Assembly: GCA_951406725.2 (NCBI GenBank)
Contig: OX597841.1
Span: forward strand, 26,784,001-26,848,000
Reading direction: 5' to 3'
Length of the DNA: 64,000 bases
Origin: Octopus vulgaris
Lineage: Eukaryota
Position 1 is the stretch's first letter, and every line of letters begins with the position of its first letter. The notes beneath the pieces were generated by a model that did not search any database, was not told where the DNA came from, and worked only from the letters and a program-made list of their open reading frames with translations. The position numbers and the translations under genes were made by a program. Below, one piece after another: positions 1 to 35,483 of the stretch.

Positions 1-586
1 TCTATCTCTATCTATCAATCTGTCTGTCTACCTATCCATCCATATACCTATCTATCTATTTACGTGCATATCTTTGTCTGACTATCTGTCTGCCTATCCA
101 TCAATCCCTCTCTGTCTGTCTGTCTGTCTGTCTCTCTATCTCTCTCTCTCTCTGTCTATCTCTCCATCCATCCATCCATCCATCCATCCATCCACCTGTC
201 TAGTTACTATAACCCCCCCCCTCTCTCATCCTCCCCCTCCACAATCTCAGCCTCTAAACCGTGCATGTCGATAGTTCTGTCACTGCAAGAGTGAACAATG
301 GCGAAATTCCTTGTTAGTGCCCTGATTGGTTAATATAATGAACTTATTGCGACATTGTATCACCATTAATAAAGACAGCCTGCTGGCCGACACAATGAGG
401 GAATCACTTTGCGGTCGTTTCAATTGCTAGAAATAGCCGCTGTGTTTCACTCAATTCACACCCTACTGTTTTACGTATGTATATATATACATGTATGAAC
501 CAACGAAGGAAACCTCTGTATGGTTGTTAGATCTGGCAGAAATGGCAGTTAAATCTCTCTCAGATCACACAATATCGTTTTACGTT

Positions 587-641
<55 letters not shown>

Positions 642-666
642 GTATATATATATGTATATATATATG

Positions 667-2545
<1,879 letters not shown>

Positions 2546-8443: not shown

Positions 8444-8578
8444 TGATTGTGGTCATTATCTCCAAAAACATGAACAGAGTTCCTCCGACTTTAGATGAAG
8501 TCGATGTTAGAATATGGTAAAGTAAAAAAAAAATTTCAAGAACCACTTTAGTTCAGCTTCCATCTACGGATGCATTAT

Positions 8579-8928
8579 CAGCGTCGTATCGCTGGGTTAC
8601 TGGCTGTTTCACTACTTGGAGAAATCGTCAGCGTTGTATCCTGGGGATGCTGGCTGTTTCAATACTTGGAGACATCGTCAGCGTTGTATCCTAGGGATAT
8701 AGGTTGTTTCGGGTCTGAGAACACAGACCCTCAATCAGAGGACCTTACTAAATTTGATCAAACTTAGGCCTATATACAAAAGACATTCTGCCGAACCCCA
8801 AACAACGCCTCTTGAAAGTTGTTTCGGGTCTTAGAACACAGACCCTCAATCAGAGGACCTTCCTAAATTTGATCAAACTTAGGCCTATATACAAAAGATA
8901 TTCTGCCGAACCCCAAACAACGCCTCTT
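8579..8928 (-). repeat. Compound tandem: ~50-bp x 2.6 followed by ~115-bp x 2, each with hammerhead-core words
   Basis: CAGCGT(C/T)GTATC recurs at 8579, 8629 and 8679. GTTGTTTCGGGTCT...AACAACGCCTCTT recurs at 8703 and 8818. Confidence 0.8.
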
Positions 8929-9729: not shown

Positions 9730-10165
9730 AATAGAATAAATATGTAAGTGTATACGCGTATACACAAATATATATATATACATGCATACACGCGCGCTAA
9801 CACGTACACATATATACATGCGCGCGCATGCCTACACACAGATATATACCGACACAAGTTAAAAAATGCAAATTGTTATTATGCACTTAGTAATTTAGAT
9901 CTATCTATCAATATATATATATATATATATTAATAATATATACCTACCTATTTGTGCGTATAGATAAAATTTTTCTATAAATGCTCATAGGACACACATA
10001 CACTTATACACACATATGCTATGTAGATATTTAATATATATATATATATACAGCTATTTATTATACATTCATATATTTGTGAATTTATATCTACATGGGT
10101 GTATGGTATGAATGTATAAGTGTGGGTGTGGGTGTATAGATATATGCACGTATATATATTTGTGT

Positions 10166-10211
<46 letters not shown>

Positions 10212-10213
<2 letters not shown>

Positions 10214-10379
10214 CGACACATTCATACCATACACTTATGTAGATATAAATTCACAAATATATAAATGTATAATAAATAGCTGTATATATATATATATATA
10301 TATATATACAGCTATTTATTATACATTTATATATTTGTGAATTTATATCTACATAAGTGTATGGTATGAATGTGTCGCT
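10212..10379. repeat. 168-bp perfect palindrome centred on (TA)13
   Basis: 10212-10282 is the exact reverse complement of 10309-10379. A diverged third copy lies at ~10051-10115. Confidence 0.92.
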
Positions 10380-12167: not shown

Positions 12168-12235
<68 letters not shown>

Positions 12236-12374
12236 CAATTAAGATTCAAGTAAATTCCAATGAATTTACTTGAATGTGGTACTTAACTTAGATGCACCAG
12301 AAAAACTATATGGTGTAAACCATACAGTAATGTGGGGTGATTATAAACGAGAAAGAAGCAACAAGAATGGATTA

Positions 12375-12467
12375 GTTTTTAGTACAATTGTTTCATACAA
12401 AGACAGACTTTATTACAAGTTGCAAAAATTGCAGCAGATAAAAGTGTCCCGTACTCATCAGCTAAAA
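12375..12467 (-). ncRNA. Type I hammerhead ribozyme (Penelope-like), minus-strand copy
   Basis: Reverse complement of 12562-12654 with 2 mismatches. Core TCATCAG at 12455-12461 and GTTTC at 12390-12394. Confidence 0.75.
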
Positions 12468-12560
12468 TACATATGAGTTCTCTAGACATCTTAGTGGGTG
12501 AGGTTATACTCATGAAATATTGGAGATAATTCCATTAAAGGCAGATATAGGTTGTAAACA

Positions 12561-12654
12561 GTTTTAGCTGATGAGTACGGGACACTTTTATCTTCTGCAA
12601 TTTTTGCAACTTGTAATAAAGCCTGTCTTTGTATGAAACAATTGTACTAAAAAC
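12561..12654 (+). ncRNA. Type I hammerhead ribozyme (Penelope-like) with long stem II
   Basis: UUUUAG-CUGAUGA-GUACGGGACA...UGUCUUUGUAU-GAAA-CAAUUG-UA-CUAAAA: stem I UUUUAG/CUAAAA, intact core, palindromic stem III, GUA triplet at 12644-12646. Confidence 0.78.
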
Positions 12655-12680
12655 TAATCCATTCTTGTTGCTTCTTTCTC

Positions 12681-12726
<46 letters not shown>

Positions 12727-15889: not shown

Positions 15890-16681
15890 CAACACACATC
15901 CACATATATATATATATATGAAAACGTGTATTCATATATATATATATGTATATATTCCTCTGTGTGTGTGCGTGGTAATATATATATATATATATATATA
16001 CATATACACACACACACATACACATTTTGCCACTATGTAATTCTTACTGTAGTCCACTATATTACCATTGTTTTTAAATGTTTGTTTACCAACAACTTAT
16101 TCAGTTAGTATTTAGCGAGTATATTTCTCAATAAGTTAAGTAGTTGATCATTCATTTGAATAGTTAAATGCTTGGCGAGTTAACAAATGAATACAAAAAG
16201 GAAGTGAATTACTACGCGAACTAAAACATAACCCGTGTCTGTTTCTCATTGGCGAAATGACCATCGCGAAACGCAAATTCTGTTTCAATAAGTGTCTTGA
16301 TAAACGAATACGGTAACTACATACATACATTCACACACATCCAAGAAAATGCACATATCTATCTATATGTATGTTTGTGTTTTACATATATGCATAAACA
16401 CACACACACACACACAATTTGTATAGGTAACGTCTATCTACCAATCTACCTATTTATCTATCTATCTATATATATGTTTATCTTTGTCTATTTTTCTATC
16501 TGTTTATATCTGTCTGTCTGTCTCTCTGGTTATGTCTTACCTACCTACATACCTGCCTACCTGCCCACCTGCCTAAAATATTACCTGATGATAGTGGATT
16601 GTATGTATGAATGCTACCGAAACAGCTGTCGTGAATTTTAATGCCATATCTATTTATGCACACAAGCGCACACATATATTC

Positions 16682-20251: not shown

Positions 20252-20676
20252 GCAGCAGCGCTGGATACTGTTGTTTTTGTTGATGGTGGTGGTGGTGTGT
20301 TTGGTGTTAAGATCACGGCCAAACTGGTCTTTGGTATATAAACTGCTTCCATCCATGGCTATCGCGTTCTAGTTTGTGTCGACGTGCAAGACACCATGAA
20401 CCACTTTGCCGATCGTGATGGTGATTTGAGGGCAATTGGTTGCTATTTCTGTTAGGTTTGGACCCTACGTATGTACATACATTACAAATACAATAGGTCG
20501 TGATTTGAGGGAGATTTAGCTGCTATTTCTACAAGAGGTCTCCTTCACTAGCTCATACCTACGTATGTGGATACATAAGGCACGACGATTTCATTCGAGG
20601 GACATTTGGCTGCTATTGCTACGTAGAAGGGATGTCCCTTGCTCATCAGACATAACGTTGTGATTAAACAACAGGT

Positions 20677-26714: not shown

Positions 26715-27736
26715 GATTGATTGATTGATTGATTGATTGATTCTAGTTTCAGCTTATGAGCTGTGGCCATGCTGGGGCACCGCCATTTTGTGTTGCTACT
26801 TGGTTTCACTTCATGGAGGCTTTCTAGCAGCTGCTATTTGGTGCATGAGAGAGTTCGATGCAGCTGCCCTCATCTGCCCCTCCTGCCGTGAAGTTGGTTC
26901 ATCTGGGACACCTGACAGGAAGAGATCCAGCTTCATTTTAAAGACATCTGTATCCACCCCATGCAGGTCTCTCAGGTTCTTCGGGAGGATATTGAAGAGC
27001 TGTGGGCCTCGGAAGCCCAGGCTATCACAGTATCTTGTCCTACATCTTGATGGCAGGTTTGGAGTCCTAGGCACCACGCAGTGGCGCCCAGTTCTGGCAT
27101 TTGCGTAACTCTCGATGCCAAAGTTCAGGACACTTCCCTCCAGGATCTTCCAGATGTATATTATGGCATATCTTTCCCGCCTACGCTCCAGGGAATATAA
27201 TTTTAATCTCTTGAGTCTTTCCCAGTAGCTTACATTCTGCATAGAGGCTATCTTCTTTGTGTAGCTTCGTTGGATCGCCTCAAGTTCTGTGATCAACTTG
27301 ACACTGGATGGTGACCATAGCTGAGAGCAATAGTCAAAGGGGTTTAGGACAAGTGTCTTCCAGAGGACCATCATGGTTTCTTGTTCTCTTGTTCTAAAGG
27401 TTCTAAGAATCCAGCCAGCCAGCCGTCTACATTTCATTGTCAGTTTAGCAACATGTACATGAAAGGTCGCGTCATCACTCATGTGAATACCCAGGTCACG
27501 CACTGATTGTGCCTCTGGGATTGCAATCCCTCCGGGTCCAGTGTATTCATTGGGTATTGCATTCAGTTTTGCATGCTGATAGTATAAAGCTTGAAACTTT
27601 CCAGCATTGAACTGCATGCTATTCTTTTCAGCCCACTTGTATATTTCGTCCAGCTCACATTGCAGGTGTTTAGTGTCCTCAGGGTTCTGTATTGCCTGTG
27701 AAACTTTTGTATCATCTGCATAACTTGTGATCGTGG
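26715..27736 (-). mobile_element. Second 5'-truncated copy of the CR1/L2-like LINE, C-terminal ORF intact
   Basis: ORF 26811-27617 is highly similar to 1143-1949, with YADD near 27710-27725; (AATC)n tail. Confidence 0.93.
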
Positions 27737-27754
27737 TGTGTGTGTGTATGTATT

Positions 27755-29890: not shown

Positions 29891-30054
29891 TATATATATA
29901 TACATACATACATACACGTGCCTGTGTATGTATGTATGTGTGTATGTACGTCTGCGTTTCTCAGTCTGTCTGTTCGTCAGACAATATGTCCATACAGTTA
30001 CATTTGGGATCTATGCTGCTGCTTTTCTATGCAATGTATGCATATGTTGGTATA

Positions 30055-30238
30055 TGTCTGTGTGGCGCTGTTTGTCCCACAACGTCGCTTGATGACAGAT
30101 GCCGGTGGGTGTACGACCTCGTAACTTGGCGGTTCGGCTAAAGAGAAGATAGAATAAGTCCTGGGTTGTCGATTTGCTCGACTAACGGCGGTGCCACAGC
30201 ATGGTCGCAGTCAAATGACTCAGACACGTAGAAGAGTA
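30055..30238 (+). mobile_element. SINE family A 3' fragment
   Basis: GGCGGTGCCACAGCATGGTCGCAGTCAAATGACT. Confidence 0.7.
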
Positions 30239-34650: not shown

Positions 34651-35070
34651 CGAGCAAAACGCCCTCCCCCGCCCAATGGATGGTGCTGATTTGTCAAACA
34701 TCTAAACCAAATTTTCTCAAAACAATCCGACCGTCCCATAGGCTCCCCTTTGAGAAACCCTGATTTAACCTAAATTTGAGACACCAGCAAAAAAAGAAAT
34801 AAAGATAGACTTCTTTCTGTTCCAAAGAAAAATGATTTTATTCACACAAATATGCAACCGAAGAGTTTAAAGTACCAGAAATGATAAGGTTGTTGACTGG
34901 GAGAACACAAACATGGTTTGAAAAGTAACCTTGGCAGGAAAGAAACATGCCTTTAAGCAGTACAAAACCAATAATAGATGGAAGGTGCAGTTATGTACAG
35001 GTTGACGGAAGAAAAGCGGGACAAAAACGACTTTATCGATCGCATTCTCACCTGGAATCGATTTTTGTAA

Positions 35071-35480
35071 TATCTGTGTCCTCTCAGTATTTGTGAAGGG
35101 GAGTCATCCTCCCCGTCTTCAACACATGATACACACGTACCCGAGTTTCAAGGTGTTAACCTTTCATCAGCGTGTGACAATCATGGTTGTCAACAAGAAG
35201 TCAGCTCCCTTCACAAATACATATGCTTTTTCCAGTGTCGATTGACACTGATATTGAAAAAGTGAAATCAAACAATGATAAATCTCAGAGCGAGTTATAA
35301 ACAGTAGCGGTAAATACTGAGAGGACACAGATAGTGTGTCTATAGCCAGCTGGAGGAGATATCTTCCTGGGGCTACAAACTACAGTAGCATCCACCCTTA
35401 TGGGTTAGCCATATTCAAATGGCAAATATACGTCACGATGTGTTACCGCTACTGTTTATAACTCGCTCTGAGATTTTGTC

Positions 35481-35483
<3 letters not shown>
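35071..35483. mobile_element. Penelope-like rearranged fragment with three interlocked inverted repeats
   Basis: Inverted pairs 35071-35092/35312-35333, 35087-35103/35205-35220 and 35274-35313/35443-35483; contains a hammerhead. Confidence 0.6.
35132..35176 (-). ncRNA. Minimal type I hammerhead ribozyme
   Basis: CACACG-CUGAUGA-AAGG-UUAACA-CCUU-GAAA-CUCGGG-UA-CGUGUG: 6-bp stem I, 4-bp stem II, intact core, GUA cleavage triplet. Confidence 0.85.

Follow-up and report, generated by a model that had tools for sequence, protein, structure and literature searches.

How does a block of octopus DNA come to carry two hammerhead ribozymes on opposite strands of one long inverted repeat, and could these ribozymes act at the place where they now stand? 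The block lies in a stretch of 64,000 nucleotides from Octopus vulgaris (GCA_951406725.2, contig OX597841.1, positions 26,784,001 to 26,848,000), which is called the window below and which consists of microsatellite-rich animal DNA with remnants of LINE-like reverse transcriptases. An initial annotation, made from the letters alone, had read the block as a divergent pair of Penelope-type hammerheads in which self-cleavage would compete with a long RNA hairpin. The analysis reported here leads to the view that the block is a real inverted pair of hammerhead-bearing copies of a high-copy repeat, the likely outcome of one retrotransposition event of a Penelope-like element (PLE) that inserts into (TA)n. 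The idea of a competition between cleavage and hairpin fared less well.

Structure of the block and of its hammerhead motifs

The inverted repeat (12347-12467 and 12562-12682) consists of two arms of 121 bp, which differ at 2 positions (12407/12622 and 12435/12594) and enclose a spacer of 94 bp; alignment of the arms recovered the same coordinates as had been given initially for this fold-back (Table 1). The statement that the block is bounded by (TA)n on both sides holds for the right arm, which adjoins its tract directly, whereas on the left 115 bases of the element lie between the tract and the arm. Read on the minus strand from 12561 to 12232, the long copy measures 330 nt and comprises 94 nt of upstream sequence, the ribozyme, a further 30 nt and the 115-nt tail. 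This tail contains two strong hairpins (12244-12275 and 12305-12328) and has a folding z of -6.21, with equally stable shuffles in 0 of 200 cases. No target-site duplication can be read within the (TA)n.

Table 1. Coordinates of the parts of the block, in order along the window
Feature	Position	Strand	Remarks
Left (TA)n tract	12171..12231	.	likely part of the insertion target
115-nt extension ("tail"), 3' of the minus-strand ribozyme	12232..12346	-	native family sequence; contigs bridge it to the arm in 4 of 4 runs
Left arm, 3' part of the long copy	12347..12467	-	12347 is the common end point of the family beside (TA)n
Type I hammerhead, minus copy	12377..12467	-	stem I 12462-12467/12377-12382, core 12455-12461, stem II 12395-12454, GAAA 12391-12394, predicted cut after A12383
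Spacer, 94 nt, native upstream sequence of the minus copy	12468..12561	-	most family copies stop in its first 20-40 bases
Right arm, short inverted copy	12562..12682	+	its first base is that of stem I of the ribozyme, its last is the family's common end point
Type I hammerhead, plus copy	12562..12652	+	core 12568-12574, stem II 12575-12634, GAAA 12635-12638, palindromic stem III 12638-12645, predicted cut after A12646
Right (TA)n tract	12682..12724	.	likely part of the insertion target

Each arm, read outward, presents UUUUAG, CUGAUGA, a stem II region of 60 nt, GAAA, CAAUUG, UA and CUAAAA. In both hammerheads, stem I is a helix of 6 bp (UUUUAG/CUAAAA) and stem III is the 8-nt palindrome ACAAUUGU, and the core CUGAUGA is found at 12568 on the plus strand and at 12461 on the minus strand. 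Each arm thus contains the complete, outward-pointing type I hammerhead that had been claimed for it, with the core CUGANGA, GAAA, UH and stems I to III in order, and the two peculiarities noted at the time, a stem II of about 60 nt and a palindromic CAAUUG stem III, are present in both copies. The two motifs are real and look intact, and each has a predicted cut site.

Stem II is the least regular part of the structure. Its basal pair is G-U where G-C is usual (the G10.1-C11.1 pair is absent), and a G-U at this place may lower the activity of a hammerhead. Basal G-U and A-U pairs also occur in published Penelope hammerheads, including those in the accessible part of File S1/S2 of PMC8557442. 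Moreover, stem II folds weakly (z -0.95 and -1.80), and its upper part is variable and not well conserved among the copies.

A hammerhead descriptor found three motifs in the window, one in each arm and one at 35170, with no motif in any of 30 block shuffles or in either of 2 reversed sequences. The Rfam comparison suggested initially gave a divided answer: the Hammerhead_1 model (RF00163) aligns exactly to 12562-12652, with the long stem II handled as an insertion, but it does so with 19.4 bits (E 0.023), which is below the gathering score of 34 bits. When the gathering threshold was applied, Hammerhead_1 had no match over the window and none in the whole 469-base block. Matches of the block to Rfam microRNA families were discarded as being due to the hairpin.

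The third motif lies in another (TA)n-bounded hammerhead unit, from an unrelated family, on the minus strand at 34651-35482. This unit has its core at 35170, a stem II of 14 nt, a near-palindromic stem III and a cut at UA; its stem I is predicted to be prolonged by a long helix between 35333-35312 and 35092-35071, its 5' end carries an inverted piece of 34 bp, and an intron may start near 35050. Like the main block, it ends in CTCG beside (TA)n. Such units are therefore not rare in the window. A probable fourth hammerhead, now decayed, is located at 16579-16640 on the plus strand, with CTGATGA at 16585, a weak stem II, GAAA, the palindromic ACAGCTGT, C and a stem I of 4 bp. Two other places on the minus strand have hammerhead-like cores with no full fold, namely 20560-20660 (core at 20649, where a helix of 8 bp surrounds a long stem II region) and 8578-8710 (cores at 8681 and 8631 in a 50-bp tandem).

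A high-copy family and its end points

Part of the block is contained in 20 of the 24 sequencing runs listed (8 studies, 3 organism codes). The family was surveyed in four of these 24 runs, all as contigs aligned to positions 12232-12561 of the reference; 1978, 893, 736 and 41 contigs were aligned, most of them 90-99% identical to the reference. The hammerhead-bearing repeat is a high-copy family with hundreds to about 2000 contigs per run, the depth of which is no copy number.

The ends of these contigs explain the limits of the arms. Loose (TA)n ends before 12342 were seen, among the loose-end rows listed (24 of 191), in at least 32 contigs of run X2, at least 22 of run X6 and at least one of run X1. 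Since in many copies of the family (TA)n follows at the position where the right arm stops, 12347/12682 is a common end point. This common end is situated 30 nt past stem I, so the hammerhead is near the 3' end of the family sequence, and the gradient of truncation indicates that the ribozyme is on the sense strand. In all four runs there are contigs that bridge the arm to the 115-nt extension, and one of them continues for 718 nt past 12232.

The spacer tells a similar story on the other side of the left arm. In run X2, the summed depth is about 1.0 million at 12463-12473, 184,000 by 12496-12506 and 71,000 by 12507-12517, and the depth in runs X4 and X6 declines across the spacer in the same way. 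This decay away from the left arm identifies the spacer as the upstream sequence of the left copy, the continuity being read from the depth gradient, which over the last 30-40 bases is mixed with an edge effect of the reference. Seven pieces cross 12467/12468 among the 32 of 3675 listed; their shorter side has 5-25 letters, and none has 31 on both sides. Position 12560 is followed immediately by (TA)n in one X6 contig and is where the match of one X1 contig breaks off.

Variation within the family spares the parts of the motif on which a hammerhead depends. The 32 variable places include none of the 29 positions assigned to the core, to stems I and III and to the base of stem II (P 0.018 in a hypergeometric test on 261 positions, the 29-position set having been chosen by the analyst and variable places being listed only from 5 in 100 upward). 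The initial annotation had made its reading conditional on homologues that keep the core and stems; they do so, upper stem II excepted. Ten variable places lie inside the ribozyme, of which five are unpaired, three keep their pair and two, the common variants at 12416 and 12443, break predicted pairs in upper stem II. Low-level insertions are seen in stem I among the family contigs. As for the block itself, each arm has one private, non-compensated change with respect to the family majority (at 12407 the family has G; at 12435 no common variant is listed), which suggests that the two arms were copied from one template and diverged afterwards.

No relatives were found among viral contigs or in prokaryote genomes. 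Twelve metagenome loci retrieved with an 18-base pattern were put down to chance: none aligned past 18-34 bases, and the one examined fully is bacterial coding DNA. An antisense frame of 70 aa (12264-12473) was rejected as coding, with no match in 1.84 billion proteins and none in Pfam; the family variants in this frame comprise 8 synonymous changes, 17 non-synonymous changes and 2 stops. One minus frame has 12 synonymous variants out of 27, which was not treated as significant among six frames.

Origin of the pair and behaviour of its RNA

The anatomy, the high number of contigs, the shared (TA)n end point and the native tail and spacer are observed; for the event behind them, we infer an enzyme and a two-primer mechanism of the following kind. 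A GIY-YIG endonuclease would cut both strands within a TA tract, and a reverse transcriptase would use both DNA ends to prime copying of the element RNA. The shorter cDNA, begun at the common site (12347/12682), would break off at stem I of the ribozyme after 121 nt; the longer one would start 115 nt further 3', so as to include the tail, and would extend 94 nt past the ribozyme, giving 330 nt. The two cDNAs would then join head to head with their 3' ends outward, and the ribozyme would be a passenger in the terminal repeat. The source may have been an autonomous element or a short non-autonomous derivative; the 5' end of the long arm may mark where a short non-autonomous unit regularly begins, as opposed to a chance truncation.

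This layout has a precedent. The accessible parts of Craig et al. (2021, PMC8557442) and Arkhipova et al. (2013, PMC3846280) describe a PLE unit made of a 5'-truncated copy and, next to its 5' end, a second 5'-truncated copy in inverted orientation; one side may also have a tail. The octopus block has the same head-to-head layout, one-sided tail and microsatellite target as this insertion unit of the endonuclease-bearing PLEs, which also bears out the initial remark that inverted terminal copies are known for such elements. It differs in that the copy has no ORF, the tail is 115 nt long instead of 30-40 nt and no target-site duplication is readable. The features of a Penelope unit present here are a hammerhead in a terminal repeat near the 3' end, an inverted 5'-truncated copy, a one-sided tail and variable 5' ends. 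In vitro, according to PMC11167929, AT-rich DNA is cut and extended on both strands by an anole Penelope protein; synthesis begins at two sites within the RNA, which set the tail, and the anole ribozyme needs the protein and is dispensable for insertion. The end points 12347 and about 12232, together with the pivot at stem I, would make a natural test of this two-start-site model of Penelope insertion.

The link to Penelope and the dimer-type hammerhead proposed initially are therefore favoured by the structure of the family and by the likeness to published hammerheads and insertion units, but no Penelope ORF accompanies them. A search for a linked Penelope reverse transcriptase or GIY-YIG ORF, which had been recommended, returned only LINE-like reverse transcriptase matches among the 157 frames scanned in the window (26 + 131, picked from the longer, non-repetitive ones). 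Membership in the Penelope-like elements is consequently an indirect assignment; truncated copies are expected to be without an ORF.

Could the right arm have been made at the level of DNA? A single truncated copy might have been present first, with the right arm added later by an inverted duplication between (TA)n tracts. The window offers an example of a TA-embedded inverted duplication that has no ribozyme, at 10047-10379, where three copies of a segment of about 70-90 bp, each turned against the next, are set between (TA)n tracts, and the arms of the block do come from nearly the same template, with just 2 differences. However, the first base of the right arm is also that of stem I, and its last lies at the common (TA)n end point; a DNA accident would have no reason to choose either place. 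The right arm also omits the 115-nt tail. We therefore regard such a duplication as improbable.

If the pair arose by retrotransposition, what would its RNA do? The folding energies, which take no account of tertiary contacts or proteins, put the monomer hammerhead fold 2.5-3.8 kcal/mol above the predicted minimum; the predicted pair probability of stem I is 0.03-0.13 within 12555-12660 and 1e-4 to 1e-7 with native flanks. A double hammerhead (-29.0 and -32.6 kcal/mol) beats two monomers (-25.4 and -26.4), and the best alternative dimers (-34.1 and -35.1 kcal/mol) are more stable than the double hammerhead. In the source RNA, the ribozyme is predicted to cleave as a dimer via its palindromic stem III.

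At the locus, the prediction is different. The fold-back of the whole block amounts to about -244 kcal/mol, with a probability of stem I near 1e-80, and on either strand the antisense arm is upstream of the ribozyme and is thus transcribed first. An antisense arm made first and a fold-back of this stability would bury the ribozyme in read-through RNA, which is predicted to silence it and speaks against the competition between self-cleavage and hairpin envisaged initially. In this model, only a transcript initiated in the spacer could cleave at the locus.

It is very improbable on these grounds that selection has made the block a switch between self-cleavage and a long hairpin serving as a substrate for ADAR or Dicer, because with stem I at about 1e-80 and the antisense arm preceding the ribozyme on both strands there would be no equilibrium competition to select. 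Moreover, the changes in the arms are private and uncompensated, so there is no sign of selection on the fold-back, and no host exon was identified near the block in the frames scanned in the window. What the fold-back does provide is an excellent double-stranded substrate, and the octopus edits heavily. Lizard Penelope repeats are heavily edited too (PMC5625713, accessible part), and siRNAs match inverted Penelope regions in flies (PMC3681739, likewise). Action of ADAR or Dicer on the fold-back is plausible by analogy with these cases. One candidate is an A>G change on the ribozyme strand at 12452 (mirror 12577), at the base of stem II, which is seen in run X1 only (4 contigs, depth 22/136) and is absent (0) from the three other runs. 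It is a weak hint of editing that an allele explains equally well, X1 being contigs, guessed to be from RNA, of another individual.

The notion of a MITE whose 121-bp terminal inverted repeats carry hammerheads by chance and which inserted at TA suits the near-perfect arms, the short interior and the TA-like bases on both outer ends, but it is already largely refuted and hardly credible, since a flat interior depth would be expected where the depth drops more than tenfold within 45 bases, and since the left arm runs into 115 nt of native sequence and, in one contig, 718 nt beyond. Equally hard to credit is an assembly artefact, a fold-back chimera of two copies of a high-copy repeat: the region is rich in microsatellites, and no strand-change joint is among those listed in the four-run contig survey, so that the 12561/12562 junction depends on the assembly, yet the arms differ at two places, each private with respect to the family majority, a difference that would not be expected if a single molecule had joined to itself, and the layout matches a published natural unit.

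Relatives of the ribozyme and what it may mean

The comparisons that follow are with the accessible parts of the papers and supplements cited. In File S1/S2 of PMC8557442, hammerheads of the Hydra clade have CUGANGA, GAA, a palindromic AC...GU stem III and frequently an A where they are cut, and Penelope-13_HM has the ribozyme on both strands via an inverted 5' copy; the same paper places Hydra-clade hammerheads on the sense strand near the 3' end, gives (TA)n as the target and has one family in Octopus. The octopus hammerheads share with this clade (Penelope-13_HM, Penelope-2_NV and Hydra-2_Amil) the type I build, a stem III of four AC...GU pairs and the (TA)n target. They differ in stem II with its loop, which is 60 nt here as against about 11-24 nt in the Hydra rows listed, and in a stem III that has no central loop base. 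The build of the ribozyme most resembles that of the Hydra clade; a Neptune-like element or a non-autonomous derivative would fit equally well, there being no ORF from which protein motifs could be taken. Proteins of the Hydra clade are marked by RWK, DKT and a CxCX5C linker and have no CCHH. Targeting of (TA)n is common to Hydra, Neptune and Naiad and is hence not diagnostic.

Closer identifications were tried and given up. The sequence differs, by eye, from Hydra-1_Obim. A link to Naiad through "HHR_half_core", which is listed for Octopus and Euprymna, was discarded on seeing that Naiad_Ovul has GAAA before CTGATGA; the Naiad clade itself was rejected because the ribozyme here is full whereas Naiad is without a canonical hammerhead and has a half-core in its 3' UTR, and because the 3' ends of Naiad_Ovul and Naiad_Omin are unlike it by eye. 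Motif searches of the PMC8557442 supplement, as accessible, gave 0 matches. The 3' end of the Naiad_Ovul consensus in that supplement, with GAAA preceding CTGATGA and several possible helices, could by eye be a permuted hammerhead.

Pairs of hammerheads on opposite strands, 100-700 bp apart, were reported in 2014 by Cervera and De la Pena (PMC4209133). Their Schistosoma and Cotesia Penelope pairs have in common with the octopus block the opposite-strand pairing, the truncated copies and the predicted dimer cleavage. These hammerheads are minimal, with no stem III helix and with a bulged base before G-C in a short stem II, whereas in those of the octopus stem II is long, has G-U at its base and is free of bulges, and stem III is a full palindromic helix. 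The animal non-LTR retrozymes (PMC7229834; bioRxiv 10.64898/2026.07.22.740005) are also short non-coding repeats with type I hammerheads, thought to be moved by Penelope enzymes; they are head-to-tail tandems, whereas the octopus locus is head to head. No head-to-tail tandem is present at the locus and no go-back joint is listed among the contigs, which are short.

The arrangement is thus already known: the literature describes hammerheads paired on opposite strands, insertion at TA, siRNAs derived from the inverted parts and Penelope repeats that are heavily edited. The 60-nt stem II alone is unusual; it exceeds all those in the two published tables (in the animal rows the maximum is about 24 nt by count) and has a 53-nt precedent. 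This is the spike-moss element PLE-X1_sMoe (File S2, PMC8557442), likewise a Penelope hammerhead with a long stem II region, its 53 nt being counted from the table; it differs in belonging to a plant, in being endonuclease-less, in its 28S rDNA target, in being marked non-canonical and in its unrelated sequence. Nothing on Penelope hammerheads of this type from octopus was found in the openly readable literature; subscription papers or Repbase could have one.

One speculation, which we consider unlikely though worth stating, is that the long-arm hammerhead works, with the 60-nt stem II and the folded 115-nt tail as the signal that the Penelope protein binds for cleavage and for its two start sites. 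There would then be an abundant class of cephalopod ribozymes that has been missed, many of its members locked in ADAR-edited fold-backs. If this were true, the class would have been missed because such long-arm ribozymes are under the Rfam threshold and outside standard descriptors. The locus itself matters little, as one copy of a common insertion scar. What matters more is that the family is young and abundant and that its hammerhead escapes standard searches, so the ribozyme counts for such genomes are probably too low. In an octopod host, moreover, the fold-backs may account for part of the heavy A-to-I editing that its repeats undergo.

Other repeats in the window are of familiar kinds. 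A weak match to a Kazal domain at 30001-30210 (E 0.0017) was rejected, with no further exons in its support. Remnants of LINE-like reverse transcriptases lie at 553-1632 (plus) and 26814-27752 (minus), 95% identical and in opposite orientation; an argonaut protein (63%) is the best named relative of a LINE reverse transcriptase of the window, which suggests an octopod host. A tRNA-like SINE, about 150 bp long and probably of the octopus type, is present in nine copies (13320, 29513, 40894, 21054, 26338, 46288, 2174, 25040 and 28144).
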